Shown: in pieces, positions 35,022 through 60,564 of the stretch
Numbering within the stretch: position 1 is the stretch's first letter
How the letters are laid out: every line of letters begins with the position of its first letter
Position numbers and translations under genes: made by a program
NCBI GenBank assembly: GCA_041570195.1
Contig: JBFFWQ010000018.1
Coordinates: 466-64,465 of the forward strand
Reading direction: 5' to 3'
Length of the DNA stretch: 64,000 nt
Origin: Candidatus Promineifilaceae bacterium
Lineage (GTDB): Bacteria; Chloroflexota; Anaerolineae; Promineifilales; Promineifilaceae
The notes under the pieces: generated by a model
What the model saw: the letters and a program-made list of their open reading frames with translations, nothing else
The model's database searches: none
Told to the model about the DNA's origin: nothing

Positions 35022-35056
35022 AGTGTACTGTATTGTACCAGGTTCGAGGCCATCAC

Positions 35057-37087: not shown

Positions 37088-37137
37088 TTGGAGGTAACAT
37101 TGGTGTCAATGTGTTATTGTATTCATGGAATCCGCAT

Positions 37138-37159
37138 GCCTGAGCGACCCTCAGGTTTT
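37138..37159 (+). terminator. weak hairpin plus T4 (CCTGAG-CGACC-CTCAGG-TTTT) between the activase and corrinoid-protein genes
   Basis: 6-bp stem followed by TTTTG, read directly. Too short to be sure it terminates. Confidence 0.25.
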
Positions 37160-37185
37160 GTGCGTGCTGGTATCCGAGGAGAGCA

Positions 37186-37872: not shown

Positions 37873-37890
37873 AATGGAGTCTGCCGCAGG

Positions 37891-39407: not shown

Positions 39408-39540
39408 ACCTCGACATCTGTGTTATGTGGCGTCCCATCTTCTTTGGGAGGAGACGTCACGCGCTACAGTGCACCACCACTGAAGTAAACGCTAACCACT
39501 AGAAGCTCGTAGCCAAGAGCTGTTTTCGAAGGAGGCAACC

Positions 39541-41247: not shown

Positions 41248-41310
41248 TTGAAGGCCCTTTACAAAGCATGATTGGCCGGTCGACGGCCTGATAACCTGCC
41301 CGCCCTTTTC

Positions 41311-44179: not shown

Positions 44180-44182
44180 CGA

Positions 44183-44815: not shown

Positions 44816-44859
44816 CGTTTTCCTCGTTGCAGTTGCCTGCGCCAGTGGCCGAACATCAC

Positions 44860-45699
44860 TTATCGTAATGCATCATTGCCATTGCCCGGTATCGATACAT
44901 CGCTCACGCTGCGACGCTGGCCAAATCCCATCTCGGCCGAGATCGTTTGCGCCGTTTCTTGTAAGGGATTTATGAAGCTTTCCACGATCCCAGGTCCCAT
45001 GCGGTAGGTCGGCCCAGAGACAGATACGGCAGCCACAGCCTGACCTTCATGATTGAATATAGGCGCAGCGATGCCACTGAACCCCGCTTCGAACTCCTCA
45101 TGCACAATGGCGTATCGTTGCAGCCGGATTTCTTTCAGGATATTGATGAGCGTTTGGTCGTCAGTCACCGTCTGGCTTGTGTACTTCACCAAAGGCAGTG
45201 CGAGCCTGACGGAACGTTCCCTGTCTGGCAAATAGGCCAACAGCACTTTTCCGGCCGCCGTACAATGCAAGGGCGTGCGCCGACCGATCCATCCTTCGTA
45301 GCGGATCGGTTGGGGGCTGCGCGCCCGTTCGATGTTCACACATTCATGACCTTCTATTACGGTGATGTTTACTGTTTCCTGCGTAGATGCCACCAAGTCA
45401 TTCAGATAAGGCTGGGCCACTCCGCGCACGTCCAGTCGCCCCAAAGCCACTCCGGCCAGGCCGATCAATCCTAATCCCAGCCGGTACCTCCCCGATTCTG
45501 GATTTCGACTAACCAGGCCACCTGCTTGCAGTGTCGCCAAGATGCGGGAAACGGTGCTTTTGTGCAAGCCAAGGCGATGGGCCAGTTCGGTCACGCGAAG
45601 TTCAGGCTCGTACTCAGTGAAGCTGCGCAGAATAGCTATCGCCCGCGCGACTGATTGGACGCTTTCAGTCGTCCTCGGCTTATCTTTAGGCATCGGCAA
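44860..45699 (-). CDS. IclR-family transcriptional regulator
   Basis: 279 aa. SVARAIAILRSF...LRVTELAHRLGLHKSTVSRILATLQAGGLV plus an IclR effector domain. Confidence 0.9.
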   Translation of the reverse strand: MPMPKDKPRTTESVQSVARAIAILRSFTEYEPELRVTELAHRLGLHKSTVSRILATLQAGGLVSRNPESGRYRLGLGLIGLAGVALGRLDVRGVAQPYLNDLVASTQETVNITVIEGHECVNIERARSPQPIRYEGWIGRRTPLHCTAAGKVLLAYLPDRERSVRLALPLVKYTSQTVTDDQTLINILKEIRLQRYAIVHEEFEAGFSGIAAPIFNHEGQAVAAVSVSGPTYRMGPGIVESFINPLQETAQTISAEMGFGQRRSVSDVSIPGNGNDALR

Positions 45700-45955: not shown

Positions 45956-47260
45956 ATGACCTCCCCGACAAGAGTTCGCGTCCGGCTAAAGGCTCGCTAC
46001 CTTCCTTTTTTGCTCGGGCTAGTGCTTTTACTACAGCTGATTGTTCCCCATAAAAGCTGGATGATCCTGCTGGTGGGCCTGGGTGGCGCGTGGCTGATTG
46101 GCAATCGTTGGGCCTATTCGCTGGCCAGGAGTCTGGAACTGACGCGTGAGCGCCGCTTTGGCTGGACGCAGGTCGGCGATAACTTACAGGAACGTTTTAC
46201 TCTGACAAATCGTGGTTGGGCGCCAGCACTTTGGGTTACGGTGCGCGATCATTCTACCCTACCCGGCTACCAGGCCAGCAAAGTGCGAACGGTGGGAGGA
46301 CGGGCCTTGATCCACTGGTTCACGGATGGCGTTTGCTACCGCCGTGGCTTGTTCACGTTGGGACCCACTACTTTCGAGACGGGCGATCCTTTCGGTTTCT
46401 ATCGCGTCACGATTGACTATCCCGGCCTCTCGACAATGATGGTCATGCCGCCCATCGTGAAGCTGCCCGCCATCGACATCGCCTCCGCTGCGCGAGCAGG
46501 AGAGGGCCGACCCATCGCAGAACGCTCGCCAGACCGCTCAATAAGCGCAACCGGCGTGCGCGAGTTTGCTCAGGGCGACAGTCTGCATCGAATTCATTGG
46601 CCCACCTCGGCCCGTCACGATGATCTCTTTGTGCGTATTTTCGAACGTACACCGGCCAGCGACTGGTGGATCTTTCTGGATCTGTACCAACAGGTGCAGG
46701 CTGGCGTTGGGCAGAACGCATCTGAAGAACAAGCCATAATCCTGGCCGCTTCCCTGGCGTCGCAAGGACTAGAAGGAGGCACGGCCGTCGGCCTGGCGAC
46801 TTCCGGACTGGGCCAGGGCGCCGTCTGGCTGCCGCCGAAACTGGGAGACGATCAGCGCTGGCGAATCTTGCGCGAACTTGCTCTGGTAGAGCCCGGCGAT
46901 CAGCCCCTTACCCGGCAATTGGCCGGCGCCAGCGCCACGCTGAAAGAACGTAGCAGCTTGATCATCATCACGGCCGATATTGAGGGACAATGGCTCAACC
47001 CCATGCTGCTGCTGATGCGGCGCGGGATCATACCCACGGTGCTACTGCTGGATCGGGCAGCATTTGGCGGGCAAGGAGAGGCAGCCGGCGTTTTGGGCTC
47101 GTTGCTCGATCTGGGCGTCACCCACCATCTTATCATGCCCGATCTCCTGGAGCGGCCCGAAATGCAGCCAGGGCAAATCGGCAAATGGCGCCGCACGCAA
47201 CGAGGTCATTGGGAACCAAAGTTTGACCACGCTGCGCTGGATTGGAGAGAGCTGACATGA
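45956..47260 (+). CDS. DUF58 domain-containing membrane protein
   Basis: 434 aa with N-terminal TM helices. Signature VREFAQGDSLHRIHWPTSARHDDLFVRIFE. Confidence 0.85.
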   Translation: MTSPTRVRVRLKARYLPFLLGLVLLLQLIVPHKSWMILLVGLGGAWLIGNRWAYSLARSLELTRERRFGWTQVGDNLQERFTLTNRGWAPALWVTVRDHSTLPGYQASKVRTVGGRALIHWFTDGVCYRRGLFTLGPTTFETGDPFGFYRVTIDYPGLSTMMVMPPIVKLPAIDIASAARAGEGRPIAERSPDRSISATGVREFAQGDSLHRIHWPTSARHDDLFVRIFERTPASDWWIFLDLYQQVQAGVGQNASEEQAIILAASLASQGLEGGTAVGLATSGLGQGAVWLPPKLGDDQRWRILRELALVEPGDQPLTRQLAGASATLKERSSLIIITADIEGQWLNPMLLLMRRGIIPTVLLLDRAAFGGQGEAAGVLGSLLDLGVTHHLIMPDLLERPEMQPGQIGKWRRTQRGHWEPKFDHAALDWRELT

Positions 47261-49617
47261 GGCGCAGATGGCTGCGCCGTTTGAATCGAAGAATGCGCCG
47301 GGAGAACTGGTTGGCGCTTGGCCTGGTTCTGGCGATCTTCTTTATCATCCTCTTGCGGGTTGCCAGCGCTGTAGACGGCCTTGAATTTAGTCTCCTATGG
47401 CCAACGACTCTTCTGGGGTTAGCGCTCGGATGGGGGCTGGCAGCGGTCGCCGCGGGTCACCTGACGATCATCCTCGGTGTGCTGCTTGGCCCACCCTTGA
47501 TAATAATCCAGGTCGGCAACTTGTTAGCGCCATTGGCAGCTTTGGCCGTTTCCTTCGTCGCCTTCGTCAGCCAGGCGATACTCTCAAGCGCTATGCCCGC
47601 GTCCACTTCCCTTGTCACTGCTCGAGATGAACTTGCGGCTGCCACTAGTGCGCTCGTCACGCGATTGTACGATTGGTTCCTGGCATTGACGGGCGGAGAG
47701 CCTCTGTTCGACCCGGTGGCCACCGCAATTCTGTGGCTGCTGGTGCTATGGGCGGCCGCCTTTTGGGCCGGTTGGTCCGTGCGGCGGCGTAACCAACCAA
47801 TGTTCGCTCTACTTCCCGCCTTAATATTGTTGGCGGTTATTATCATCATCACCGGCACGTCAGCCTTGTACCTGGCGCCCGCGCTAGCACTGATGTTGAT
47901 ACTGAAAGCCACTATATCGCACGCCAAACGAGAACAGAAGTGGAAGGCGGATGAAATCAACTTTTCGCAGAAATCCGGCCGCAAGGTCGCCTGGACGACC
48001 TCGGGGCTGGCGCTGGCTTTGATGATCGTGATGCTCATCATGCCTTCGCCTTCGATTTACCGCCTGGCGGACCTGGCCCGAAACCGGTCCCAGCAACAGC
48101 GAGACCAGGAACTGGCCCGCTCATTAGGGTTGGAAGCTGCACCGGATGCGCGTGCTGTCGACGCCTTCGCCAATGAACGCCTTGGTGGCTTGCCGGCGCG
48201 CCACCTGATCGGTTCTGGACCCGAGTTATCCGAGCAGCCAATCATGGCCATCAGCGTCGAAGGGCCTAGTGCCCAGGCAAGCCGATTGCGCTACTGGCGG
48301 GGCCAGACCTATGACCGCTACAATGGTCGCGGCTGGGAGACCGGGGGCACGAGCACGATCGACTACGCGGCCGGCGAAACAGCCGGGAGAGCATTGGAGG
48401 GCCAGCAGTTGGTACGCCAGGAAGTGCGCCCCCTGACCGAACTCGGCGGGCTGCTATACGCCGCCGGCACGTTATGGACGGTAGATGAGGCCTTTCAGAT
48501 CGCCTGGCGCGCCCGCTATCGTGCGACCGAAACTTATACAGACTTCTTCGCGGCAGCGGCGGCCGATGGCAATACAGGCACCTATCGCGTGGATTCCTTC
48601 GTTCCCGATTTCGGCGAGGCTGAGCTGCGCGCCGCTGGCCGAGATATACCCGACTGGATCGCAGAGCGCTATCTGGCCCTGCCGGATGATGTATCGGCCC
48701 GGGTGAGGGCGCTGGCGCGCGATCTGACGGCTACCGAGCTAACAGCTTATGACCGGGCGCGGGCCATCGAGGCGTATTTACGCCAGTTTCCCTACACGCT
48801 TGGCCTACCCGCGCCGCCGGCCGACCGTGAAATAGCCGATTACTTCCTCTTTGAGCTTCAGCGCGGTTACTGTGATTATTATGCAACCACCATGGTCGTT
48901 CTGGCCCGGGCGGCAGGTCTGCCGGCGCGCCTGGCCACCGGGTTCATCGGCGGAATGTATGACCAGGAAGAACGCCGCTTCACAGTCACGGCCGATCTGG
49001 CCCACTCCTGGCCAGAGATCTACTTCCCGAATTATGGCTGGATTCAATTTGAGCCTACAGGCGGCCGGGCCATCATCGAGCGCCCGGCCAAGGCCCGGCC
49101 GCCGGTTGAATCGGAGCTAGAAGCAGAATTAGAACCGATTACCGAGGCTCGTAGTCGCGCCCGATGGAACCTGGTGCTAGGCGCTGCGGCCGGGGTGATG
49201 CTCTTCGCTGCCGTGGCTACCGTTAGCTGGTGGCTCGTAGATATTTGGCGGCTGCGCTACCTCAGTCCAAACCGGACCATCATACAGCTCTTCAAACGAC
49301 TAAGTCGTGGTGGCCATCGGTTGGATGTGCGACCAGAGCCAGGCGAGACGCCCCACGAATTCGCCGGCCGGTTGAGTGCGCGATTGGTTGCACTGTCCGG
49401 CAGCGAGCCCGAGAATGGGTCGTTGGCCTCAGCTCCAGAAGCGGTCTATTGGTTGACCGGACTCTATACGCGTTGTCTATTCAGCCCTTACGAAGCGCAG
49501 GCGAAGCAGCGCGCGCTGGCCATCCATACCTGGTCGCGGCTGCGCATCCAGCTGCTATGGGCAGCACTGCTGCAACGAAGCAAAAAAGGGATCCGCCGCT
49601 CTCATGACAGCCGCTAA
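47257..49617 (+). CDS. transglutaminase-like domain membrane protein (TgpA-like)
   Basis: Start at ATG 47257 (ATGA overlap with the DUF58 stop; GGAGAG 8 nt upstream). Multi-TM N-terminus and a transglutaminase core GYCDYYATTMVVLARAAGLPARL...HSWPEIY...WIQFEPT. Confidence 0.85.
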   Translation: MRRRWLRRLNRRMRRENWLALGLVLAIFFIILLRVASAVDGLEFSLLWPTTLLGLALGWGLAAVAAGHLTIILGVLLGPPLIIIQVGNLLAPLAALAVSFVAFVSQAILSSAMPASTSLVTARDELAAATSALVTRLYDWFLALTGGEPLFDPVATAILWLLVLWAAAFWAGWSVRRRNQPMFALLPALILLAVIIIITGTSALYLAPALALMLILKATISHAKREQKWKADEINFSQKSGRKVAWTTSGLALALMIVMLIMPSPSIYRLADLARNRSQQQRDQELARSLGLEAAPDARAVDAFANERLGGLPARHLIGSGPELSEQPIMAISVEGPSAQASRLRYWRGQTYDRYNGRGWETGGTSTIDYAAGETAGRALEGQQLVRQEVRPLTELGGLLYAAGTLWTVDEAFQIAWRARYRATETYTDFFAAAAADGNTGTYRVDSFVPDFGEAELRAAGRDIPDWIAERYLALPDDVSARVRALARDLTATELTAYDRARAIEAYLRQFPYTLGLPAPPADREIADYFLFELQRGYCDYYATTMVVLARAAGLPARLATGFIGGMYDQEERRFTVTADLAHSWPEIYFPNYGWIQFEPTGGRAIIERPAKARPPVESELEAELEPITEARSRARWNLVLGAAAGVMLFAAVATVSWWLVDIWRLRYLSPNRTIIQLFKRLSRGGHRLDVRPEPGETPHEFAGRLSARLVALSGSEPENGSLASAPEAVYWLTGLYTRCLFSPYEAQAKQRALAIHTWSRLRIQLLWAALLQRSKKGIRRSHDSR

Positions 49618-49770: not shown

Positions 49771-50649
49771 TCATGTCTCGCCTGCCTCGCGCTTCCGGCG
49801 GGCGCGAAACGCCTTGATCCAATTCATGCCGTAGTCATCACGGCCCATTGCCAAATCGGCAGCCAGAATCGCCGTGATTATCTCCTTCACCAGAGGATTG
49901 GTGATCGGGCAGGTCAGGCCAGCATGGATGGCCATGGCAATGAACGCAGCGTTGACGTATTTGCGATCGGGTAGGCCAAAGGAGATATTGCTGGCGCCCA
50001 TCGTCACGTTAACGCCAAACTCTTTCACGACCAACATGATCGTCTCCAGGGAAACTCGGCCGGCGCTGCTGTCAGCTCCCATAGTCAAGGCCAGGGGATC
50101 GACAACGATATCCTCGGGCGGAATACCTAGTTGACCTGCGCGCTCAATGATCTTTCCGGCGACCGCCAGCCGCTTCTCGGGCGTCTCCGGGATGCCCTCG
50201 TCATCCATACACAAACCAATGACTGCGGCCTCATGTTCTTTGACCAACGGCAAAATCGCTTCCAGGGATCGCTCTTCGCCATTGACCGAGTTCACCAGAG
50301 CCTTGCCCTCATACAACGAGAGGGCGGCAGCCAGCGCATCTGGATCGGCCGTGTCAATGCACAAGGGCACGTCTGTCACTTCCATCACGGTACGCATTAC
50401 CTGGCCGAGCAAGACGGGTTCGTCCGCGCTCGGCACGCCAGCATTCACATCCAAGATTACAGCGCCGGCCACAACCTGGCTCAAGGCATCCTGGCGCACA
50501 ATATCGAAATTCCCGTCCTGTAAAGCAGCCAGGACTTTCTTGCGGCCGGTCGGGTTGATTCGTTCGCCGATGACTGAAGTCGGTCCAGTGCGGCTAATCT
50601 CCACCGTCTTTGTCTTGGATGCAACTATCGTTCGTAAGTTATTTGGCAT
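49771..50649 (-). CDS. methyltetrahydrofolate:corrinoid methyltransferase (pterin-binding), copy 2
   Basis: Start at ATG 50649 (GAGG 6 nt upstream). VIGERINPTGRKK, ILDVNAG, ALVNSV, GASNISFGLP. Colinear with copy 1. Confidence 0.85.
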   Translation of the reverse strand: MPNNLRTIVASKTKTVEISRTGPTSVIGERINPTGRKKVLAALQDGNFDIVRQDALSQVVAGAVILDVNAGVPSADEPVLLGQVMRTVMEVTDVPLCIDTADPDALAAALSLYEGKALVNSVNGEERSLEAILPLVKEHEAAVIGLCMDDEGIPETPEKRLAVAGKIIERAGQLGIPPEDIVVDPLALTMGADSSAGRVSLETIMLVVKEFGVNVTMGASNISFGLPDRKYVNAAFIAMAIHAGLTCPITNPLVKEIITAILAADLAMGRDDYGMNWIKAFRARRKREAGET

Positions 50650-50787
50650 TCTCCACCTCAAACGGATCAGTTAACGACTACGAATTGTTATCTCTTTTCT
50701 CGTGGTTTGATCGGGGCTGCCGATCGATAGATCTCCAGGTCCTATGTCCGTTCGGACTTCTTGCCCTGGTTTTTCCCGGCTTTCGAA

Positions 50788-53010
50788 TCACGTGTTTAGA
50801 TGCGTTTTGGATCCCTGATTGGCAGCATTACCCTGGCCGCGTTTAACCACGTTACACATTAAGGCCTTGTATACCGGAAAACCGGAAATTGGATCGCGAT
50901 TATCGAAGTCCGTCAATTGGTTGACGTTGCCACGTTGCCAGTCCACCGGCCCAACCGGACCCCCACCGCCCATATTCACTTCGACAACTCCGGGTACGAT
51001 ATGTTCCGTCACGTGAGCCCTAAATGGCGCCCTGCCTCGAGGAGAGAGTACGTAGACAGGATCTCCATCCACTATTCCCCTGGCATAGGCATCTTCTGGG
51101 TGTAGGTGAACCAGCGGGAAGGGTTGTTTAGCTGCCAAGGAAGGTATATTGTGGTGCTGAGAACGGAAGGCGGTCTGGGTTCGGGCGCCGGAATTAAATA
51201 CAAGCGGGTATTTCCGGGAGATTTCTGGCGCAGCCAACGGACCCTCAATGGGTTCGGTATAGGCCGGCAAAGGATCATATCCATTTTGCCGGAACCATTC
51301 CGAAGCAACTTCGAACTTTCCTGTTGGCGTATTGAAGCCCGGCGCGCCATCGGCCCGCAGTAAGCCTGCTTCATATTTGCGAAAGATCATGGCCGGCACG
51401 TCGAATGGCAAACCCTCAGGAAACTCGCGCAAGGCTTCCAGGGTAAAACCATTGTCGCCCAACGCGTCTCTTATCATGCCCTCTTCCGTTTGCGGCCAAA
51501 GCTGCCCATAACCTAAGCGGCGAGCCAATTCGGAGAATATCAGGTAATCGTTACGAGCCTCGCCGACCGGCTCAATCACCTTTTGCCTGAGTTGAATATA
51601 ACCATCGTGAATCATGTACGATTCAATCTCAAACATGGTCGTGGCTGGCAAAAGGATATCGGCGTAGCGGGCATCAGCCGTAGGGAAACGATTGACGATC
51701 ACCAGGAAATCGAGCGCCGCTAGCGCCCGGCGCCACAAGTCAGGATTAGGCCACGATGTAATGAGCGATGAGCCGCTGATGATCAAGGCCCGCACGGGGT
51801 AAGGATCATCCTCCAAGATAGCCCGGGGCAACAGGGCTGCATGGGCCTCCTTACGAACCTCGTAGTACAGCGGATATTCGTCGGCGCCAAGGGGTTTAGG
51901 CGAATCAAGTGGCAAAGGGGTCAAGATGCGGTTGAGCTGCAAACGGTCCGGCATCTTAAACAATTTGCCGCCCGGCACGTCCAGATGACCGGCGATGGCC
52001 TGCAGCGCCCATACCGCCCGAATTGCCTGGACCCCACCATTGGAATACTCCAGGCCAGTATAGGTTAGAATCGAGCATCCTTCTGCCTGGCCGACAGCCC
52101 TCGCTAACTCACGGATTCGATCGGCCGGCACCCAGCTGATTTGTTCAACACGCTCAGGGGTGAAGGCAGCCACATAGTCGCGCAATGCACGAAAACCATG
52201 CACCCATTGTTTGACGAAGGGAAGATCGTACAGTTCGTCAGCGATCAAGACGTGAATCATGGCCAGAGCCAGTGCGCCATCGGTTCCCGGCCGGATGCCT
52301 ATCCATTCGGCCCGCATGGCCTGGGCAGTTTCGCTGCGGCGATGATCAATGACCACGACCCGCGCACCACTGCGCTGGGCTCTCATAAGCCGGGGCAGAT
52401 TAATGGGCGACGAATCCGTGGTTGGGTTTTCACCCCAGACAAGGATCAGATCGGCCTGGTCGATATCCTCGACCATGTTACGCATATACTCACCAAAACA
52501 CGCGCGAGACGCGATCATGCCGTAGGCTGCATAACAAAGCGAGCCGACACCGCTTGCGTTGGGGGAACCAAAGGGAAACAAGACGGCATTGGCCGACGAT
52601 TCGACGGTTCCTTCAGGAGCAAATGCTTCATTTAGGCCGTATTCGAAGTTCCCCCGGCCGGTGTAGATACAGACGGACTCAGGACCGTGCCGCCTGGCGA
52701 TTTGATGCAGATTGTCGACGATTGCCTCATAGGCCACATCCCAGGTGATTCGCTCGAATAGCTGCTGGTCGCGCGCACCATTTCGCCTTTGCGGGAATAG
52801 GATTCGGTCAGGTGAATACACGATCTCCCGAGCATGCATACCCCGGGGGCAGACGATGCCTTGAGGATGTTCTTTGATGGGAGTTAGCCGGTCGATCTTG
52901 CCGTCGACTTTGTGGACATGCACACCACAGCCTGCCGGACAGATACCACATATGCTGGCGACCACTTCTTCGACCGGTGTTGTCGCGATGATGCTTTCAA
53001 TTAATTCCAC
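50788..53010 (-). CDS. molybdopterin (bis-MGD) oxidoreductase, cytoplasmic, substrate unknown
   Basis: 740 aa. N-terminal Fe-S motif CGICPAGCG...C. Typical MopB-family and C-terminal molybdopterin-binding patterns. No twin-arginine leader and no in-frame stop. Confidence 0.85.
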   Translation of the reverse strand: MELIESIIATTPVEEVVASICGICPAGCGVHVHKVDGKIDRLTPIKEHPQGIVCPRGMHAREIVYSPDRILFPQRRNGARDQQLFERITWDVAYEAIVDNLHQIARRHGPESVCIYTGRGNFEYGLNEAFAPEGTVESSANAVLFPFGSPNASGVGSLCYAAYGMIASRACFGEYMRNMVEDIDQADLILVWGENPTTDSSPINLPRLMRAQRSGARVVVIDHRRSETAQAMRAEWIGIRPGTDGALALAMIHVLIADELYDLPFVKQWVHGFRALRDYVAAFTPERVEQISWVPADRIRELARAVGQAEGCSILTYTGLEYSNGGVQAIRAVWALQAIAGHLDVPGGKLFKMPDRLQLNRILTPLPLDSPKPLGADEYPLYYEVRKEAHAALLPRAILEDDPYPVRALIISGSSLITSWPNPDLWRRALAALDFLVIVNRFPTADARYADILLPATTMFEIESYMIHDGYIQLRQKVIEPVGEARNDYLIFSELARRLGYGQLWPQTEEGMIRDALGDNGFTLEALREFPEGLPFDVPAMIFRKYEAGLLRADGAPGFNTPTGKFEVASEWFRQNGYDPLPAYTEPIEGPLAAPEISRKYPLVFNSGARTQTAFRSQHHNIPSLAAKQPFPLVHLHPEDAYARGIVDGDPVYVLSPRGRAPFRAHVTEHIVPGVVEVNMGGGGPVGPVDWQRGNVNQLTDFDNRDPISGFPVYKALMCNVVKRGQGNAANQGSKTHLNT

Positions 53011-53068
53011 TACCGATCCTTCAAAGCTCAGAATTCTGGGGCCTTATTGCAGCCGTTTTCTATACCTC

Positions 53069-54562
53069 TCATGTCGTGTCCTCCTGCAGGATTCTTTCGA
53101 TTTCTCCATCGACCGAAGCAGGCACTTCCTGTATCTTGTGTTCGTCCAGGATGCCTATGGTTGTCTCCCGCAGAGTCGCGTTTATGTCCTTCGCTCCCTG
53201 ATCTTGCCAACGATCTAATCGCTGGCGGTTGAAGATCTGCGGCATCCATAACGCTCGCCAGTGATCCATCGTGTGTTTGTGACTCAAGAATTCTCCGCCA
53301 GGTCCGACATCATTGATAACATCAACGGCCAAAGCTTCCGCGTCGACGCGAACTCCTTCGGCGAATCGCCGGGTCATGGAGATGATCTCGTTCGTCAACA
53401 CCATCATCTCTGGCGAACCGGTCAAGCCGCTTTCTAGATAGCCCACATCGTGGTTGAGGTTGGTCCTGGACAGCAAAGCAACCAGGACAGCAAATTGGGC
53501 GTCGGCCGCGGCTTGGCCATCGATGACTTTGCTGTCACTATGCCCGGCATAACCCCACACGGGCAGACTATAGAAGCGGCCCATTTCGGCCGCCATTACC
53601 CGGGCGAGTTGGAATTCGGGCGCACCGTATACGCTGATCATCTCCTTCATATCCATGTGATGAACGCCATGTCCATAAAGGAAGGGGGCGCCAGGATTCT
53701 CAAGTTGGTGCATGACCAGGCTGCTGAGCACCTCGGCATTGCCCAGAGCTACCGCTCCGGCTAAGGTCACCGGGGCTGTCGCGCCCATCATTGGCGCCGG
53801 CGAGTGAGTGATTGGGATCTTATGCTTGGCACAAAAAAGGAGTTTTTCGGTTGCGTCCAGACTATGTCGGAGGGGTGTCGAAGGCTCGGAATAAAGCAAG
53901 ATGCTTGGATATTGAACAAGTTCGTCCAGACCGCCGGCGGCCGCGGCGGCCATGGACGTGATAGCTTCCATGTCGGCCTTCGTACCGCACACGACCACGA
54001 TGGGCTTGGTAGTATTGCGCAACATGGCAGCAAATTGGTATCGAAAATAGGTCGCTTCGGGCACATCTCGCGGCACGCCCAGCGACATCATGAAATGAAG
54101 TTCGGGTAGCGAATCGACCACCCTGGCACAATCGCCGATGTCTGCCAGGAGAAAATCACGACGAACTCCAGAGCGAGGATCTAGATAGCGAAAAGTGTCA
54201 GAGCCTGGGCCAAAATAGACACCCTTGCCATCCAACTTGATGGCCACCTGGTCGTTGCCTCGACTATAAAGATTGAATGATCCCGGAACAGTAGCCAAGG
54301 CCCACTCGACAAGAGAAGGTGGTATCTTCACCAGGTTCTCCTCGATCAGGGCTCCGGCCTGGTCCAGCAAGCGAATGGCGGCCGGGCTAAATACGCGGAC
54401 ACCTGTCTGCCGCAGAATCTCACAGGAGGCGCGATGAATGCGCAGGCAATCTTCGCGGCCCAACATGGAAAACCGCGGCCGTATGGGAGGCAGGTCACGT
54501 CGTGGTAGATCACGTGGTGAATGAGCTTGGGTCAACGGGTCATGGTGATGTCGGTCGTTCAT
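53069..54562 (-). CDS. MttB-family methyltransferase, non-pyrrolysine type (paralog 5, most divergent)
   Basis: Start at ATG 54562 (AGGAGG upstream); the ORF is open from TTG 54595. FGPGSDTF, NHDVGYLESGLTGS. Lacks the poly-Arg N-terminus of paralogs 1-4. Confidence 0.85.
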   Translation of the reverse strand: MNDRHHHDPLTQAHSPRDLPRRDLPPIRPRFSMLGREDCLRIHRASCEILRQTGVRVFSPAAIRLLDQAGALIEENLVKIPPSLVEWALATVPGSFNLYSRGNDQVAIKLDGKGVYFGPGSDTFRYLDPRSGVRRDFLLADIGDCARVVDSLPELHFMMSLGVPRDVPEATYFRYQFAAMLRNTTKPIVVVCGTKADMEAITSMAAAAAGGLDELVQYPSILLYSEPSTPLRHSLDATEKLLFCAKHKIPITHSPAPMMGATAPVTLAGAVALGNAEVLSSLVMHQLENPGAPFLYGHGVHHMDMKEMISVYGAPEFQLARVMAAEMGRFYSLPVWGYAGHSDSKVIDGQAAADAQFAVLVALLSRTNLNHDVGYLESGLTGSPEMMVLTNEIISMTRRFAEGVRVDAEALAVDVINDVGPGGEFLSHKHTMDHWRALWMPQIFNRQRLDRWQDQGAKDINATLRETTIGILDEHKIQEVPASVDGEIERILQEDTT

Positions 54563-54608
54563 TTGCCTCCTCGCGGCACACTGGCAGAGTACCAACTATC
54601 TTAATGCC

Positions 54609-54626
54609 AAAAGGGCGATCCGCCCT
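54609..54626 (-). terminator. terminator-like hairpin (A)GGGCG-GAT-CGCCC(T)TTTGG in the 5' leader of MttB paralog 5
   Basis: 5-6 bp GC stem, 3-nt loop and T4 on the minus strand, about 45 nt upstream of the ATG. Short, so uncertain. Confidence 0.3.
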
Positions 54627-54650
54627 ACTGATGATCGTCCAAAAATTCAC

Positions 54651-54698
54651 TGTAGATCGGCACGTATGGTGCAGACAAGCCCTGCCAACTGATCTACA
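54651..54698 (-). promoter_or_regulatory. 12-bp interrupted stem (8+4 bp, 4-nt bulge, 20-nt loop) in the same leader
   Basis: TGTAGATCGGCA pairs with TGCC-(AACT)-GATCTACA; all 12 pairs verified by hand. Confidence 0.4.
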
Positions 54699-54814
54699 TC
54701 TGGCCCGAGAGCTTCTTATGTGAATGAACAGCCCAACTGTCGACTGCCTGGCCCACCTGTTTGGGGTCGTTGGTCCCCATCGGAACTTTCGAGGCGACGA
54801 CTCTATCGAATTGT

Positions 54815-55924
54815 TTATCCCCAAACCCGCCTGGCAGTCTCGGCGATCGTTCCAAGCTTGTACTTTTCATCGTCGACGGTAATGGCATTGCCGACTACCG
54901 ATGTCGAAAAACCGCACTGGGGACTGAGGGCAAGCCGTTCCAGGTCGATATACTGGCTGGCTTCTTCTAAACGCCGGACCAGTTCGCCGACACTCTCGCG
55001 CCGGGCTGTCTTAGTCGTCACCAGTCCCAGAACGACCGTTTTATCCTCGGGAACATCCTGTAAAGGCACGAATGAACCCGAACGCGCATCGTCGTACTCG
55101 AGCATTAAGCGCTGGGCGTGGATGCCCTGGAAGATCGGCTTGGCGATCAGGTCATAACCCCCTTCTACCAGCCATCGACTTCCCTGATTGCCCCGGCAGA
55201 GGTGAAAACTGAAGGTCACCCCGGGAAAGTCGCCGATGACCGCGTTATCCATGGCAATGCCCCTATCCAGATAGTCCTCCAGGTCCCACCCGCGTGACTC
55301 ATAGAAAGACCGAGTCTTAGGGTCGAGCAACAGGGGGTAATGGGGAGCATCCAACTGTATGTAGCTGGCGCCAAGACGGACCAACTCTTCAACTTCCTCA
55401 CGCAAGATATCCACCACGTCGGCCAGAAAACCGTCGACGGTTGGGTAGGCGGCCGTCGAATGTTCGGCCGACCAGAAATTGACCCACAAACTAGGGCTAG
55501 GCAGGGTTATTTTGGGAACCCGCGTCGTCCTGGCCCGAAGATAGGTGAACTCTTCGGCCGAGAGGTGCCGTTTGCGACGCAGCTTGCCGGTGACGCCAAG
55601 CTGCTGGGGTCGCTCGCAACTCCAATCCCCGATGCCTTCCTCTCCGGCCCAATCGCCCCACAAGAAGGCATCGATATCCCATTCGCCAAAGCCTTCCACC
55701 GCTTCTGGTAACTGGCTTTGGAACGAGAGGCGACGCTGTTCACCATCGGTGACGACTTGCAGGCCGGCCTCCTCTTGCAAGGCAACCGCTTGATCGACTG
55801 CCAGATCCTCGATGGCCTTGAAAGCCACCTGGCTAATACGGCCGGCGGCCAAGTCATCGCGAGCTTTCAGTAGCTCAGGCGGCCGGAGCAGGCTGCCAAC
55901 AACATCTGCACGGGCGGTTATCAT
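54815..55924 (-). CDS. cobalamin-independent methionine synthase (MetE C-terminal domain)-like Zn methyltransferase
   Basis: 369 aa. N-terminus ADVVGSLLRPPEL...VTDGEQRR. Putative Zn ligands are retained: HLCRGN, LEYDD, SPQCGF. Confidence 0.85.
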   Translation of the reverse strand: MITARADVVGSLLRPPELLKARDDLAAGRISQVAFKAIEDLAVDQAVALQEEAGLQVVTDGEQRRLSFQSQLPEAVEGFGEWDIDAFLWGDWAGEEGIGDWSCERPQQLGVTGKLRRKRHLSAEEFTYLRARTTRVPKITLPSPSLWVNFWSAEHSTAAYPTVDGFLADVVDILREEVEELVRLGASYIQLDAPHYPLLLDPKTRSFYESRGWDLEDYLDRGIAMDNAVIGDFPGVTFSFHLCRGNQGSRWLVEGGYDLIAKPIFQGIHAQRLMLEYDDARSGSFVPLQDVPEDKTVVLGLVTTKTARRESVGELVRRLEEASQYIDLERLALSPQCGFSTSVVGNAITVDDEKYKLGTIAETARRVWG

Positions 55925-55982
55925 GATCTACTCTCCTGGGACACGAAAAGATTGACCGATACCAAGTTGCTTCAAAACCTGC

Positions 55983-57290
55983 TCATGTCGCTTTCTGAGT
56001 CAACCAGGTTAGCGTTCGAGCCATCTCATTGTGAAACGCGGCGATGCTGGCGCCGGCCGGCCGGTCTCTTGGATAGGTCAAGAGGTCAGGTTGCATTGCC
56101 AGGGCCACCTGGCTGGTGACGGCCGACGGAGCCCCTTCCAGCAAGATCCGCATGTCGCGAGCCCGGCATTCCTGGCTGGCTACGATCAACTCCTGGATGG
56201 TGCCCAGCCGGGACATCTGCAGGTGGAGCACATGAACTGCTTCGGCCTGGACGAAGGACCGAATATCACTCAGCGTATGAATTCCGGCGCTTGCTACCAA
56301 TTGCAGCGACATCCCGCGCATGCGGATGTAACTGCGCAATTGGCCTAGGGCCTCAATCTGAGAATCAAGATCGTCCAAGATCAGTGGGTCCTGTACGCGA
56401 ACCAGGCACGGCTTGGCCGCTTGCTCCAGACCATAAAGAGCGCCCAAGACCTTGCCGATGTCCTGGCCAAAGATCTGTCCCAGGCCTCCAGCAGTGTCCA
56501 GATGAATCGTCATCGGCCGCGCATAACCAGCCTCGACCAGGCTCTCCCGCAATTGGCGTACAAATCGTTGGATCCGCTCGCCGTTTGGTCCTAAAGATTC
56601 TTCAAAGTCAGTCCTGCCGACGGCATAAGAAAGGGCTGAGATCTGATCGTGCAGTTGCAGCTTCTGCCCGCGTTGGATAGGCATTTGCAGGTCAACGGCC
56701 GTCGATGGGATGGGTAAATCGAATTCTTCGGCGATGATCTCGGCGACGGTTACGCCCCGAACCATCGACACAGCCGACAATAAGGCCTGACTTAAGCCAT
56801 GGCCAATGGCTGGATGGATCGCTCGTTCAATCGTAATCTGCTCAGTCGCAGCCACTGATTCATCCGCTTCAGAGGAGGAAAGAAACCCGCTGATGATCGC
56901 CCGGCGGGAGACGATTTGGGACCGCCTTTCCGGCTGGGGTACAGGCTTGCTTATGGTTACGGTTTCCCTTATCGACTCGACCACGCTGGCCAGATGGCGG
57001 AAAGTGACCAGCTTTTGCCCCACCAAGAGAGGATTAATCTTCTCTTCGATGAAAGCAATACCCTCTTCAATTGAAAAAGGGGATTGGAAGTCGGGTCGGT
57101 CTCCAACTTGAACGTCTTCGCACGTTCCCCAGGCGATCCGCGAATCGCCGATTACAATACCAAGCTGGATCGTCCCAGTAGCTTGGCCGGTTGTGTCCAA
57201 ACCTGGTACGGTTACTATTGAGGTGATGGCGGGACGGTCCTCGGCGGAACCCTTTCCGACCGGAGACTTCCCAAGTGGAGATTGTTCCAT
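55983..57290 (-). CDS. methylaspartate ammonia-lyase-like (enolase superfamily) protein with non-canonical active-site positions
   Basis: 435 aa. Segments VPGLDTTG, IAWGTCEDVQ, HPAIGHGLSQALLSAVSMVRGVTVAEIIAEEF, IHLDTAGGLG and QLVASAG...LHLQMSRLG align by eye with my recollection of clostridial MAL. Confidence 0.5.
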   Translation of the reverse strand: MEQSPLGKSPVGKGSAEDRPAITSIVTVPGLDTTGQATGTIQLGIVIGDSRIAWGTCEDVQVGDRPDFQSPFSIEEGIAFIEEKINPLLVGQKLVTFRHLASVVESIRETVTISKPVPQPERRSQIVSRRAIISGFLSSSEADESVAATEQITIERAIHPAIGHGLSQALLSAVSMVRGVTVAEIIAEEFDLPIPSTAVDLQMPIQRGQKLQLHDQISALSYAVGRTDFEESLGPNGERIQRFVRQLRESLVEAGYARPMTIHLDTAGGLGQIFGQDIGKVLGALYGLEQAAKPCLVRVQDPLILDDLDSQIEALGQLRSYIRMRGMSLQLVASAGIHTLSDIRSFVQAEAVHVLHLQMSRLGTIQELIVASQECRARDMRILLEGAPSAVTSQVALAMQPDLLTYPRDRPAGASIAAFHNEMARTLTWLTQKAT

Positions 57291-57768
57291 GGATGAAGAA
57301 ATTCGAGCCTACAATCACTCTATCTTGCTGGGCTGTGGATTAGCTGCCCTGGTTGGCGTTGTAGTACTGGCGGGAATCCTGGTCCTACTGTTTGCTCATG
57401 ACCGGCAGGCGGCCCAGTATCCCGGTTCTGTACCCCTTTCAAAACATAGCAACTACAGGGGCCTGCCGTTTGAGTACCGTTGGGATAATTCTTACCGCAC
57501 CTCTGATAATTTCACCGATGTTTACAATTGGTACTCCGTCAAATACGATTTGGGCGCCGAGGCGCGGGCCAACGGCGATTGCATATTGCTAGAGGGGAGC
57601 CACACTCAACTGGCATTCAGCCGCCATATCAGCGTATTTCTATGCAATACTCGCTACGGCCAGATGATCTACGTCACTCGCTCCACATCTGTCGCCGGAC
57701 GAACGGCGCTTTTCACCGGGATTGACGATCTTCGCCAGTCCCTTTCCTTCGTTAGACCACGTCCCTGA
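57289..57768 (+). CDS. hypothetical single-pass membrane protein
   Basis: 159 aa from MDEEIRAYNHS with one TM helix (ILLGCGLAALVGVVVLAGILVLLF). It fills the only gap in the minus-strand array. Coding status is unproven. Confidence 0.4.
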   Translation: MDEEIRAYNHSILLGCGLAALVGVVVLAGILVLLFAHDRQAAQYPGSVPLSKHSNYRGLPFEYRWDNSYRTSDNFTDVYNWYSVKYDLGAEARANGDCILLEGSHTQLAFSRHISVFLCNTRYGQMIYVTRSTSVAGRTALFTGIDDLRQSLSFVRPRP

Positions 57769-58408
57769 GGTCGATTATCTCCTGGTCAGGGATATTGCCG
57801 AGGACGGTATCTACCTCAGGACCGGTTACATTCCTGATTTTAAGCACAACGTCCCAGAAACCCTCGCGGCGGCGGGACGGATAGGTACCTATCCCAATCA
57901 CGCCCATGCGATGTTCGCGCAGCGCATCGCTCAATTTGGCAAACTCGCCTGCCCGCTCGGGCATACGTACCGTCACCCGAACGCCAGTCTCGGGCATGCC
58001 CAGCATTTCCTGGAGCGCGTCTAGAAGATCTGATTCGGTAATGATGCCCACGACCGCACCATCTTCGATGACGGGCAGACAGCCGATCTTGTGCTCATTC
58101 ATTATCCGGGCGGCCCGTTCAACCGTCTTATCTGGCTCGATCGTATGGACCTTGTCCCGCCCTAGCATGATGCTCTTCACATTCAGCCCGGAAAGATAGC
58201 GGGTGATATCCCACACGTCCAGGCTGGCCAGTACGTCAGGCGCCAGGGCAAAGCTTTGACGGGTGATCAATCCCTCAAGGCGCTTGCCACTGCCGGTTAC
58301 AGGTAGGTGCCGGATATTGTTCTCGGACATAATCTTTTGCGCCTCTGAGGCCGGAATCTCAGGCGATATCAAGATTGGATGTCGGGTCATACAATCGTTA
58401 ACAAGCAT
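57752..58408 (-). CDS. CBS-pair plus ACT-like domain protein (AcuB-like)
   Basis: 218 aa. Two CBS repeats (IRHLPVTG...GLITRQ; IGCLPVIEDGAVVGIITESDL) followed by an ACT-like tail. Starts 2 nt after the ABC ATPase stop. Confidence 0.85.
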   Translation of the reverse strand: MLVNDCMTRHPILISPEIPASEAQKIMSENNIRHLPVTGSGKRLEGLITRQSFALAPDVLASLDVWDITRYLSGLNVKSIMLGRDKVHTIEPDKTVERAARIMNEHKIGCLPVIEDGAVVGIITESDLLDALQEMLGMPETGVRVTVRMPERAGEFAKLSDALREHRMGVIGIGTYPSRRREGFWDVVLKIRNVTGPEVDTVLGNIPDQEIIDLRDVV

Positions 58409-58410
58409 GA

Positions 58411-60564
58411 TCAGCTTCCTTGTGGTATTGGTTGGTATTGTCTAGCATCGGGCGTGTCGCCAGAGGAGATCACTGGATCGAAGGTGCGCAATACGTCCTC
58501 CTCGATATGGCAGAAAATCCGATGCCCCCCGCCAATTTCCCGCCAGGGCGGTAGTTCTTCCTCGCATATCTTGCCTCCATCTGGCAGCAATTGTCGTCTT
58601 GGGCAACGGGTGTGGAAACGGCAGCCGCTCGGCGGGTCGATGGCGCTTGGCACCGATCCCTCGAGGCGAATATGCTTCTGTTCTACCTTGGGATCGGGTA
58701 TGGGCACGGCCGAGAGCAGGGCCTCTGTATAAGGATGATAAGGCGGCGTGTAGATGGCGTCGGCCGGGCCGATTTCCATGAACTGACCCAAATACATGAC
58801 GGCCACGTCATCAGAGAAGAATCGCACTACACTTAGATCATGGGCGATGAAGATCAAGGTCGTGTTAAATTCTTGCTGCACTTCCAGGAGCAAATTGAGG
58901 ATCGCAGCCTGTACTGAAACGTCCAGGGCGCTGACCGGCTCGTCGCACAACACCAGATCCGGCTTGCTGGCCAGGGCCCGAGCGATGCCCACCCGCTGCT
59001 TCTCACCACCACTGAGCTGGCGTGGCAGGCGATCATAGTAATTCTCGCCCAGTCGCATGGCCCTCAGCAATTTAATAACTTCGCCCCGGACTTCCTTTTT
59101 TGGCACCGTCTTGAAACGATGCATCGGCCGGGCGATCTGTTGGCCGACAGAATAAGAGGGATTCATCGTCGAATCCGGGTTCTGAAACACCATCTGAAGC
59201 TCCTGGATCAACTTCTCATCCCGGGTTGAAATATCATCGGTGACGTCAAAACCCATGAACACCGCTTCGCCAGAGGTGCTGTCTTCCAGGCCAATGATGG
59301 TTTTTATCAACGTGCTCTTGCCGCAACCGGATTCGCCGACGACGCCTAGGGTACGGCCCTTTTCAACTTTGAAGCTCGCGTTTTCCACCGCTTTCACATA
59401 GCGTTTGTCGGCCAGGCCAATCATGTCTCGCAAGGATCCTCCCTGAACCTCATAATATTTCTTCAGGTCTTTCAGCTCAAGGATGGTCTCGCCAGATCGA
59501 TTTCCTTCGACGGCGATCGGTAGTTGCAGATCCTCAGGTGGACGCCACTGGCTTGGATCGATTTCTTCGGCGAAATGGCAACGGACGGCCATACCATTTG
59601 GCAACAAGCGCAGCTTGGGTCTTTCCCGCCGGCAGCGCTCCTGGATATAGTCACAACGAGGTCCATAAACACAACCGGCCGGCCGGCTATCGGGCGGCGG
59701 CACCCGGCCTCGGATAGGATAAAGCATGCTGCTGGCCTTGTCGGCGCCCAGCTTGGGCACGCAGCGCATCAAACCCTGGCTGTACGGATGCTGGGGGTCG
59801 TCGTAGATCTGTTCGACCGTTCCTATTTCTACCATCTCGCCCGCATACATCACCCCGACTCGGGTAGAGACCCGAGCCACAACACCCAGGTTATGAGTGA
59901 TGTACATGATGGCTGTATCAAAATCCCGTCGCAATTCGGCGATCAGGTCCAGAACAGCTGCTTCCACGGTGACATCCAAAGCCGTCGTCGGCTCATCCAT
60001 GATCAAAAGGGCTGGATTGTTAAGCAAGGCCATGGCAATGACTACCCGTTGCTGTTGGCCGCCAGATATCTGATGTGGATATCGTTTCATGACATTGGCC
60101 GGATCGGGCATATATACCCGATCCAACATCTGAATGCTGCGTTCAGAAGCCTCCTCGTCATTCATGTCCCGGTGCACGGTCAACACCTCTTTCATCTGGT
60201 CACCTAGACGCAAAGAGGGATTCAGGGCTTGCATCGGATCCTGATAGACCATGGCAATCTGATCGCCCCGGAGACGACGCAATTCTTCCCCTGTCTGGCC
60301 AACCAGGTCCTGACCCTGAAACTTAATGTGGCCATCCTTCACGTAGCCATTGGCCCCCAGGAAGTTGACGATGGCCCAGGCAACCGTGCTTTTTCCGCAG
60401 CCAGACTCGCCCACGATACCATGGGTTTCGCCCCGGTAGATATCGAAGGAAACGTCTTGCACAGCTTCGATCTCGCCGCCCCTGACTTTGTAGGCGACGG
60501 ACAGGTTCTCGATATTAAGAACCGGAGCGCCCTTCCGTTTTTTATTAGTCGATGCTTCTACCAT
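58411..60564 (-). CDS. fused double ABC ATPase of the peptide/opine/nickel (DppD-DppF/OppD-OppF) type
   Basis: 717 aa. Two Walker A sites (GESGCGKST twice), two LSGG signatures (ISGGQQQRV, LSGGEKQRV) and Cys-rich Opp-type C-terminal extensions. Confidence 0.9.
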   Translation of the reverse strand: MVEASTNKKRKGAPVLNIENLSVAYKVRGGEIEAVQDVSFDIYRGETHGIVGESGCGKSTVAWAIVNFLGANGYVKDGHIKFQGQDLVGQTGEELRRLRGDQIAMVYQDPMQALNPSLRLGDQMKEVLTVHRDMNDEEASERSIQMLDRVYMPDPANVMKRYPHQISGGQQQRVVIAMALLNNPALLIMDEPTTALDVTVEAAVLDLIAELRRDFDTAIMYITHNLGVVARVSTRVGVMYAGEMVEIGTVEQIYDDPQHPYSQGLMRCVPKLGADKASSMLYPIRGRVPPPDSRPAGCVYGPRCDYIQERCRRERPKLRLLPNGMAVRCHFAEEIDPSQWRPPEDLQLPIAVEGNRSGETILELKDLKKYYEVQGGSLRDMIGLADKRYVKAVENASFKVEKGRTLGVVGESGCGKSTLIKTIIGLEDSTSGEAVFMGFDVTDDISTRDEKLIQELQMVFQNPDSTMNPSYSVGQQIARPMHRFKTVPKKEVRGEVIKLLRAMRLGENYYDRLPRQLSGGEKQRVGIARALASKPDLVLCDEPVSALDVSVQAAILNLLLEVQQEFNTTLIFIAHDLSVVRFFSDDVAVMYLGQFMEIGPADAIYTPPYHPYTEALLSAVPIPDPKVEQKHIRLEGSVPSAIDPPSGCRFHTRCPRRQLLPDGGKICEEELPPWREIGGGHRIFCHIEEDVLRTFDPVISSGDTPDARQYQPIPQGS

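Follow-up and report, generated by a model that had tools for sequence, protein, structure and literature searches.

Enzymes of the MttB family whose substrates are known act on quaternary amine betaines. Members that do not use pyrrolysine include MtgB, which acts on glycine betaine, MtpB on proline betaine, MtcB on carnitine, and MtyB on gamma-butyrobetaine; to our knowledge, most members of the superfamily have no assigned substrate. Ergothioneine, a widespread and very stable thiol-histidine betaine, has one well-known breakdown route that we are aware of, and it begins with ergothionase. The metallopterin-dependent ergothioneine synthase (MES) was described in Caldithrix abyssi (CaMES; Beliaeva and Seebeck, JACS Au 2022; PMC9516567). 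CaMES is only 27% identical to acetylene hydratase; residues 1-718 form its metallopterin module, and it carries a C-terminal pyridoxal phosphate-dependent cysteine desulfurase with residues Lys952, Cys1074, and Cys1135 (PMC9516567). Here, we analyze a 64,000-nucleotide stretch of DNA from a Candidatus Promineifilaceae bacterium (contig JBFFWQ010000018.1, positions 466 to 64,465; hereafter the window), in which the gene for a divergent MttB paralog, MttB5, directly precedes the gene for a molybdenum (Mo) enzyme that resembles the metallopterin module of MES.

The two genes lie within a minus-strand block of five, which the sequence-only reading of this DNA had put forward as a single undescribed system:

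49771-50661, minus strand: pterin-binding methyltransferase, 296 amino acids (aa); Pterin_bind; NF005719 at 317 bits (316.7), cut-off 259
50788-53010, minus strand: Mo enzyme, 740 aa; Molybdop_Fe4S4, Molybdopterin, and Molydop_binding
53069-54595, minus strand: MttB5, 508 aa; MTTB (PF06253) at 313 bits, profile positions 28-489 of 500
54815-55924, minus strand: MetE-like protein, 369 aa; Meth_synt_2
55983-57290, minus strand: protein resembling methylaspartate ammonia-lyase (MAL-like), 435 aa; MAAL_N and MAAL_C

All five open reading frames (ORFs) are uninterrupted and run exactly as listed, and Pfam and NCBIfam profiles, used with curated cut-offs for all domain calls, back each assignment. 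We collected gene neighborhoods for homologs of the MttB paralog, the MAL-like protein, and the Mo enzyme, and placed the window proteins on 106 loci (named L001-L106) by tblastn. One part of the earlier interpretation holds across these data, namely the pairing of the MttB paralog with the Mo enzyme; the five-gene unit and the N-oxide or S-oxide role suggested for the Mo enzyme do not. The conserved core of the region is a two-gene operon, MttB5 and then the Mo enzyme.

An MttB5-type gene adjoins the Mo gene in the window and in 17 further Chloroflexota loci (at least 16 independent; L006, L009/10, L011, L023-L028, L030, L032, L039, L040, L044/45, L105, and L106). The two genes always share a strand, the MttB gene comes first in all but L027, and where genes have been called the gap ranges from a 1-bp overlap to 58 bp. 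The partner of the Mo gene is always of the MttB5 type, 65-80% identical to the window MttB5 and about 30% identical to the other paralogs. Beside the pair lie Opp-type importers in the window, L006, L009, L011, L040, L044/45, and L105, and importers of a second Opp type in L023 and L026; the neighborhoods fit the earlier proposal that MttB5 and the Mo enzyme both act on one methylated compound taken up by the importer. Taken together, the data indicate that MttB5 and the Mo enzyme very probably form a functional unit.

Alternatively, the two enzymes might share no pathway and be adjacent merely within a commonly regulated island for methylamine and betaine catabolism. The window does carry five MttB paralogs along with sarcosine-oxidase-like, dimethylglycine-dehydrogenase-like, electron-transfer flavoprotein, MTHFR, and corrinoid genes, and either gene of the pair is found without the other at some loci. 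However, at least 16 loci of differing flanks have the pair, closely spaced and sharing a strand, always with the MttB5 type, and the Mo enzymes linked to MttB form a coherent subclade. We consider this explanation quite unlikely.

As had been claimed from the sequence, MttB5 is the most divergent of the window's MttB paralogs: its identity to the other four is 29-34%, those four form pairs at 55% and 47% identity, and MttB5 has the lowest Pfam score of the five. Translation probably starts at 54562, giving a protein of 497 aa. The gene contains no internal stop or in-frame amber (pyrrolysine) codon and no PYLIS match, and its TIGR02369 score of 387 bits lies under the equivalog cut-off of 525; by score, MttB5 is not a trimethylamine:corrinoid methyltransferase proper. 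At the position equivalent to pyrrolysine, 108 of 120 close homologs in the MttB5 clade have His; in the window's four other paralogs, this residue is Leu or Phe.

An Rfam scan found no riboswitch or leader in the block; its only matches were one tRNA and PYLIS-like elements in three other mttB genes. The latter are PYLIS_3 matches above the gathering score on the minus strand (7256-7355, 25894-25991, and 43044-43141), each inside one of three paralogs other than MttB3 and MttB5, which are unmatched. The matched genes have no in-frame stop and encode Leu at the pyrrolysine position, and the matches look like coding-sequence similarity rather than recoding signals.

What the Mo enzyme does is suggested by its nearest characterized relative. 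It is 49% identical to residues 12-731 of CaMES (over 726 aa) and 51% identical to hvMES; the CaMES sequence was taken from a machine-read supplement (PMC9516567), and the true identity is probably slightly higher. Its Cys159 aligns with the essential metal ligand of CaMES, Cys153, and Cys21, Cys24, Cys28, and Cys54 align with the iron-sulfur (FeS) cysteines of CaMES. The protein starts VELIESIIATTPVEEVVASICGICPAGC, only 20 residues before the first FeS Cys, and has no twin-arginine motif, in agreement with the earlier statement that it lacks a Tat leader. Because the ORF ends at residue 740 without an Aminotran_5 domain, there is no cysteine desulfurase domain. Among the metallopterin-module columns that are conserved in MES, 211 of 323 are identical in the MttB-linked clade, and there are 22 fixed differences between that clade and MES; the changes flanking the ligand Cys (CaMES numbering) are F157Y, A158G, H163R, T165C, and M169Y. 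In the unfused clade, Asn replaces a further MES-conserved Cys (CaMES position 120), a change that is compatible with loss of a persulfide relay. By its sequence, the Mo enzyme is almost certainly a member of the MES family, a stand-alone homolog of the metallopterin module.

No NCBIfam model reaches its cut-off with the Mo enzyme, and the best solved structures are acetylene hydratase (2E7Z, 224 bits) and PsrA (2VPW, 213 bits). We rejected two candidate functions at this level. The catalytic Asp13 of acetylene hydratase is Pro in the Mo enzyme (CGICPAGC versus CQSCDINC). Formate dehydrogenases have a functional His directly after the Cys or Sec metal ligand; here, the motif is SLCYAAYG, with Tyr rather than His in the FdhF-type position, and TIGR01591 scores 295 bits against a cut-off of 666.

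In the version that goes back to the sequence-only reading, the Mo enzyme is an N-oxide or S-oxide reductase, acting on trimethylamine N-oxide, dimethyl sulfoxide (DMSO), or compounds like dimethylsulfoxonium propionate, that feeds or drains the compound used by MttB5, with all five genes cooperating. It is true that the domains of the Mo enzyme are those of the DMSO-reductase superfamily and that partial matches to TorA, BisC, and DmsA exist. These matches, however, lie far under the curated cut-offs (BisC family 173 versus 1018 bits, TorA 125 versus 1465, DmsA/YnfE 257 versus 778). Enzymes of the TorA, DorA, and BisC type have a Ser ligand and no FeS domain, unlike the Mo enzyme with its Cys ligand and FeS cluster. 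With MES as the nearest characterized relative (49-53% identity to the sulfur-transferring module) and the five genes not co-conserved, this version is largely refuted by the neighborhood data, and we regard it as extremely improbable.

A scan of metagenomes separated two kinds of MES-like proteins. Homologs of about 1140 aa, 51-55% identical to the window enzyme, have the three Mo domains fused to a class-V aminotransferase (cysteine desulfurase-like) domain and are 58-64% identical to CaMES over their full length. In a neighbor-joining tree, the fused clade, which contains CaMES, stands apart from the unfused clade. The members of the window's clade are all unfused, and the MttB-linked enzymes make up one subclade of the unfused clade, with an MttB gene in 14 of 17 testable loci. 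The neighbors differ as well: 13 of the 29 fused loci have an EgtD-type (PF10017) histidine methyltransferase gene as neighbor and none has an MttB gene, whereas none of the approximately 50 unfused loci has an EgtD neighbor, and MttB5-type genes are adjacent in a dozen of them, in addition to the loci found by other routes. Likewise, no EgtD-type (PF10017) gene was found among the window ORFs scanned. The two arrangements are mirror images: biosynthesis pairs a trimethylating enzyme with a sulfur-adding one, and this locus pairs a member of a demethylating family with a sulfur module that has no sulfur supply. On the fused side, the roughly 29 contigs lie among L074-L104 (e.g., L080:6977-10432 and L088:10474-11469), and 16 of them have no EgtD gene within the fetched flanks.

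The unfused clade also has subclades without MttB (L029, L035, L046-L056, and others). At L029, a fusion of GcvT, the family of THF (tetrahydrofolate)-dependent demethylases, with DUF1989 takes the place of MttB. Elsewhere, the neighbors are an enoyl-CoA hydratase and a putative cyclase (L035 and L047) or a deacetylase with GNAT and MR_MLE proteins (L046 and L048). These MttB-less subclades may act on other substrates.

These comparisons bear on the direction of the reaction. A biosynthetic pair would convert hercynine to ergothioneine with a separate sulfur donor, such as polysulfide or a free cysteine desulfurase, and MttB5 would supply or finish the trimethylation from methyl-corrinoid. The characterized MES enzymes do run in the biosynthetic direction, and the related enzyme EanB uses polysulfide. 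Nevertheless, EgtD-type genes are near none of the approximately 50 unfused genes as opposed to 13 of the 29 fused ones, sulfur delivery in CaMES required the desulfurase on the same polypeptide, and the MES-conserved Cys has been lost. Moreover, the pair is tied to importers and catabolic regulators, and the characterized MttB enzymes are demethylases. We find a biosynthetic role very unlikely; if the substrate is ergothioneine or hercynine, the catabolic direction is the likely one.

The reversibility of the sulfur-transfer step has a precedent. MES with an inactivated desulfurase still transfers 34S from ergothioneine to hercynine in vivo (PMC9516567), which shows that the C-S step is reversible. 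Moreover, hercynine and ergothioneine are both betaines, so that two unrelated families, MttB and MES, point to the same kind of substrate. Based on this homology and on the genomic context, we put the chance that the substrate is ergothioneine or hercynine at about even, and MttB5 is the predicted hercynine or ergothioneine:corrinoid methyltransferase.

In the route that we propose, ergothioneine and/or hercynine would first be imported. The Mo/W (molybdenum or tungsten) enzyme would then convert ergothioneine and Mo(IV) to hercynine and Mo(VI)=S, as extrapolated from MES chemistry, and a two-electron reduction through the 4Fe-4S cluster would free sulfide and regenerate the enzyme, much as in PsrA. 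Following the chemistry of its family, MttB5 would take one methyl group off hercynine's quaternary amine and load it onto the Co(I) corrinoid protein encoded at 37186-37872, leaving N,N-dimethylhistidine; alternatively, ergothioneine itself might serve as the methyl donor. Finally, the pterin methyltransferases would hand the methyl group to THF, or the MetE-like zinc enzyme could hand it to a thiol such as homocysteine; passage of the methyl group onward to THF or a thiol is plausible. We assign a rough probability of 0.45 to this sequence of import, reductive desulfurization of ergothioneine to hercynine, and corrinoid-dependent hercynine demethylation. More broadly, we tentatively propose that Anaerolineae and related Chloroflexota possess an undescribed, oxygen-independent catabolism of ergothioneine or hercynine that mirrors the EgtD plus MES route.

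Several points weigh against this route. MttB5-type genes occur without a nearby Mo gene in L001, L004, and L007, and the Mo gene occurs without MttB in L022, L037, and L068. No conserved electron-donor gene was found beside the MttB5-Mo pair, and no histidine-utilization or known ergothioneine-catabolic genes were seen in any neighborhood. The importer is not of the EgtUV type, the known ergothioneine transporter, and its binding protein is distant from anything solved. The route also does not account for the MAL-like protein. There is no solved MES structure to define the substrate-binding residues, and the published reversibility of MES is an in vivo sulfur exchange, not net desulfurization (PMC9516567). 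Finally, several of the fixed differences from MES flank the Mo-ligand Cys, and the substrate may therefore differ.

This last point supports an explanation with the same logic and another substrate, in which the unfused enzyme adds or removes S (or Se) on a different N-methylated heterocycle or thio-compound, for example selenoneine, S-methyl-ergothioneine, or a thio-imidazole betaine, and MttB5 demethylates it. The fixed differences from MES, 22 in all, are concentrated near the metal-ligand Cys, the contexts of several unfused subclades (enoyl-CoA hydratase, GNAT, deacetylase, cyclase) are quite different, and the His at the pyrrolysine position is specific to the MttB5 clade, unlike in the other paralogs. 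The authors of the MES study also suggest that unknown Mo enzymes may sulfurize further heterocycles (PMC9516567). On the other hand, an identity to MES of about 50% over the full length is high for a change of substrate class, and the only known MES substrates, ergothioneine and hercynine, are already betaines, such that the link to MttB needs no extra assumption. We judge a different substrate to be somewhat unlikely.

The methyl-transfer steps of the ergothioneine/hercynine route call for corrinoid machinery. The block's own methyl-THF:corrinoid methyltransferase (49771-50661; AcsE/MtgA-like), one of the claims made from the sequence, scores above the curated NF005719 cut-off and is 53% identical to a second copy in the window. 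Only the window carries such a gene 3' of the Mo gene: no other locus has a homolog there, and the only related match is in L020 (52%). The second copy belongs to a plus-strand group identified by Pfam:

35033-37087, plus strand: RACo reductive activase
37186-37872, plus strand: corrinoid protein
37891-39407, plus strand: DUF5981 and MTHFR
39541-40443, plus strand: second pterin methyltransferase

The corrinoid protein, RACo, and the second pterin methyltransferase lie 13-18 kb from MttB5 and are not adjacent to it; this plus-strand set (35033-40443) would be the shared machinery that MttB5 needs.

The zinc site of the MetE-like protein is intact, as had been proposed: the motifs HLCRGN, LEYD, and SPQCGF (HxC, E, and C) are kept relative to 1YPX, with which it aligns end to end at 167 bits. 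We take these motifs to correspond to the zinc ligands of E. coli MetE. The protein is of the single-barrel YxjG/YxjH (1YPX) type (NF005085 at 228 bits, under its cut-off of 313); all NCBIfam methionine-synthase models stay under cut-off, and its 369 aa compare with about 750 aa for two-barrel MetE, whose N-terminal barrel binds folate. Its gene is confined to three related loci and takes a different position in each: besides the window, L019 has it 3' of the MAL-like gene (77% identity) and L028 has it 3' of the Mo gene (73%), and it is missing from L006, L009, and L011. The MetE-like gene is thus an optional accessory.

At L028 (256-9935), genes for MttB1 (76% identity), an aldehyde:ferredoxin oxidoreductase, and an MR_MLE protein directly precede those for MttB5, the Mo enzyme, and the MetE-like protein. 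In the window, a minus-strand group at 2670-8369, 45 kb from MttB5, encodes a zinc alcohol dehydrogenase, an MR_MLE enolase-superfamily protein, a tungsten-type aldehyde:ferredoxin oxidoreductase, and MttB1. Another minus-strand ORF, at 16337-19639 between genes for a luciferase-like monooxygenase and a sarcosine-oxidase-like GCV_T protein, encodes 1100 aa with only a weak SIS-domain match.

Across the neighborhoods mapped on the 106 loci, the five genes of the block are not co-conserved, the outcome that had been named beforehand as refuting the block, and we reject the five-gene unit with high confidence. The region is instead a mosaic of three recombining modules. Module A runs in the order binding protein, OppB, OppC, OppDF, CBS protein, a small gene on the opposite strand, and MAL-like gene; module B is MttB5 and then the Mo enzyme; and module C comprises IclR, hyp210, MttB4, DAO, and PhnD-like genes. 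The loci show the orders A-B-C, A-B, A-C, B-IclR, and B-A, and L105 has B-IclR with A convergent. Since the modules repeatedly adjoin one another in several orders, we argue for a looser functional supercluster.

The site 3' of the MAL-like gene illustrates this exchange. The window, L006, L009/10, L011, L013, and L040 have module B there, L014-L016 and L019 have the IclR-led module, and elsewhere the site holds a cation exchanger gene, a creatinase-like gene, or split genes resembling MetH. On a 2.6-Mb Chloroflexota contig, a DDE transposase (L012:11529-12389) lies directly 3' of the MAL-like gene, where relatives have MttB5 and the Mo gene, which suggests that this spot is a recombination-prone junction. 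Module C was identified by Pfam in the window:

40444-45699, minus strand: module C, with IclR, hyp210, MttB4, DAO, and PhnD-like genes

Its genes (51-79% identity) lie directly 3' of the Mo gene in L009 and 3' of the MAL-like gene in L014-L016 and L019, and the IclR gene comes after the Mo gene in L024, L059, and L105. In the window, module C is displaced by the pterin methyltransferase gene and a pair of genes on the other strand with higher G+C content. This pair (45956-49617, plus strand) encodes a DUF58 protein and a 791-aa transglutaminase-like membrane protein, has a G+C content of 0.59-0.62 versus about 0.55 around it, and occupies the site where L009 has IclR straight after the Mo gene; it looks like an insertion. 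In a promoter and terminator scan, promoter-like sites were fewer than in shuffled sequence and terminator-like sites did not exceed expectation; being at or below background, the scan is uninformative about transcription units.

Directly upstream of the block lies an Opp-type importer, as the sequence-only reading had stated; its OppB-like, OppC-like, and fused OppD/F genes are assigned by Pfam and NCBIfam. Together with the MAL-like gene, module A consists of:

63587-64000, minus strand: C-terminal part of an SBP_bac_5 (peptide/nickel/opine family) binding protein, ending in NPNKA and a stop codon and cut by the window edge
62104-63402, minus strand: OppB-like ABC permease, 432 aa; BPD_transp_1_N and BPD_transp_1; 61-94% identity in all module loci
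60575-62056, minus strand: OppC-like ABC permease, 493 aa; BPD_transp_1 at residues 305-485 only
58411-60564, minus strand: fused OppD/OppF double ATPase, 717 aa; two ABC_tran and two oligo_HPY domains; 74-92% identity in all module loci
57752-58408, minus strand: CBS-pair protein, 218 aa; two CBS domains; starts 3 bp after the ATPase gene
57289-57768, plus strand: small membrane-anchored protein, about 150-159 aa, between the CBS and MAL-like genes; absent from the sequence-only reading

The C-terminus of the window binding protein is 58-88% identical to the C-termini of full-length proteins of L006, L009, L012, and L015-L021. The closest solved structures to the full-length L006 protein (L006:355-2088) are those of binders of peptides, nickel, and opines, at no more than 108 bits, matches that are too weak to call a ligand. 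Both window permeases are unusually long. The OppC-like permease has about 180 extra N-terminal residues without a Pfam match when compared with 307-aa homologs; short forms of 307-312 aa occur in L009 and L012, and long forms of 474-491 aa in L006 and L011. The CBS gene always comes next after the ATPase gene in the module loci, and the CBS-pair protein is probably a regulatory partner of the importer. The small gene, whose 3' end overlaps the CBS gene by 17 bp, is 42-73% identical in at least 10 related loci (L006, L009, L011, L012, L014-L016, L018, L019, and L040). It encodes one N-terminal helix and a domain of about 100 aa with the motifs RYPGS, HSNY, FRWD, DNFT.VYNWYS, and CNT..GQM and two conserved Cys residues; a Pfam search returned no match, and the single-sequence structure model is poor (pLDDT 52).

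In all 13 loci whose upstream sequence reaches far enough, the MAL-like gene lies 3' of the ABC-CBS genes. Given that it tracks the ABC, CBS, and small-membrane-protein module, it is not part of the MttB5/Mo methyl-transfer unit. Translation probably starts at 57200, giving 405 aa. The protein scores 148 bits against TIGR01502, under the cut-off of 286, and the earlier observation that it lacks canonical catalytic residues is borne out clade-wide: six of the seven key MAL residues are gone (Clostridium tetanomorphum MAL numbering: K331 to Gln, H194 to Tyr, E273 to Gln, D307 to Ser, Q329 to His, and Q172 to Pro), and D238 alone is kept. We take K331 and H194 to be catalytic, D238, E273, and D307 to be Mg ligands, and Q329 and Q172 to be substrate ligands. 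Canonical relatives from the same search retain all seven. The fold appears to be preserved, as the structure model (pLDDT 86) finds MAL structures (1KCZ and 3ZVI) as its best Foldseek matches, with TM-scores of 0.73-0.77. Within the clade, an SRR motif of the capping domain and a number of Arg, Asp, and Glu residues do not vary, and the protein may still bind an anionic ligand.

Judged by these substitutions, the MAL-like protein would be unable to carry out enolase-type chemistry and is best described as a pseudo-lyase tied to the importer; it may serve as a ligand binder or as an accessory or regulatory subunit. A role as a trimethylamine or dimethylamine lyase was also considered and rejected, since neither the catalytic base nor the metal site is left and histidine betaines lack the required second carboxylate. 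The family is rare, with 77 relatives among 5.8 billion sequences; an alignment of 16 distant MAL-like proteins contains no conserved stretch, and the genome scan was queried with an alignment of 10 closer ones. For curation, the protein is recast as an importer-linked pseudo-lyase outside the methyl-transfer unit.

The protein families discussed here are known; what is new is their pairing, the missing desulfurase domain, and the implied catabolic direction. In the searchable literature, we found no paper connecting MttB with ergothioneine, none on stand-alone MES-like enzymes, and none reporting this gene pair, and searches on MttB with methylaspartate ammonia-lyase, on the MttB superfamily with molybdopterin, and on ergothioneine desulfurization found no description of the pairing. 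If the proposed route is true, it would be the first catabolic C-S cleavage assigned to an enzyme of the DMSO-reductase family (the C2-S bond, at a Mo/W-sulfido centre), and Mo/W-sulfido chemistry would both make and break a C-S bond. A new member of the MttB superfamily would strip methyl groups from histidine betaines into the corrinoid/THF pool. The route bears on oxygen-free turnover of ergothioneine in sediments, sludge, sponges, and guts. With a genomic partner suggestive of hercynine or ergothioneine, MttB5 also becomes open to a concrete and cheap substrate test.

YxjG/YxjH, 1YPX, and the corrinoid-dependent "core" methionine synthases have a single catalytic barrel with an intact zinc motif, as does the MetE-like protein of the window. 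The window MAL-like protein shares with MAL (1KCZ and 1KKO) the two-domain enolase-superfamily fold, MAAL_N and MAAL_C; in contrast to MAL, it lacks the catalytic Lys331 and His194 and most of the ligands and is genomically tied to an ABC importer.

Like MtgB, MtpB, MtcB, and MtyB, MttB5 has a full-length MTTB domain and no pyrrolysine codon, but it matches the solved MttB and MtgB structures at only about 181-190 bits, and its partner is a Mo enzyme rather than the corrinoid protein that accompanies known MttB-superfamily enzymes. With acetylene hydratase and PsrA, the Mo enzyme shares a Cys-ligated bis-molybdopterin guanine dinucleotide cofactor and an N-terminal 4Fe-4S cluster. Like acetylene hydratase, it is a single soluble subunit of about 730 aa. 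PsrA handles sulfane sulfur reductively, which resembles the sulfide release proposed here; unlike PsrA, the Mo enzyme has no PsrB or PsrC partner genes. MES and the Mo enzyme are both cytoplasmic and have in common the motifs CGICPAGC, YTGRG.FE, FPFGSPN, GLEYSN.GVQAIRA, FRSQHH, and MGGGGP...DPISGFPVYK. They differ in that CaMES has 1136 aa with a desulfurase, whereas the window enzyme has 740 aa without one and belongs to a separate clade, and in that 13 of the 29 fused loci have EgtD as a neighbor, whereas the window enzyme has MttB instead and is predicted to work in the catabolic direction.

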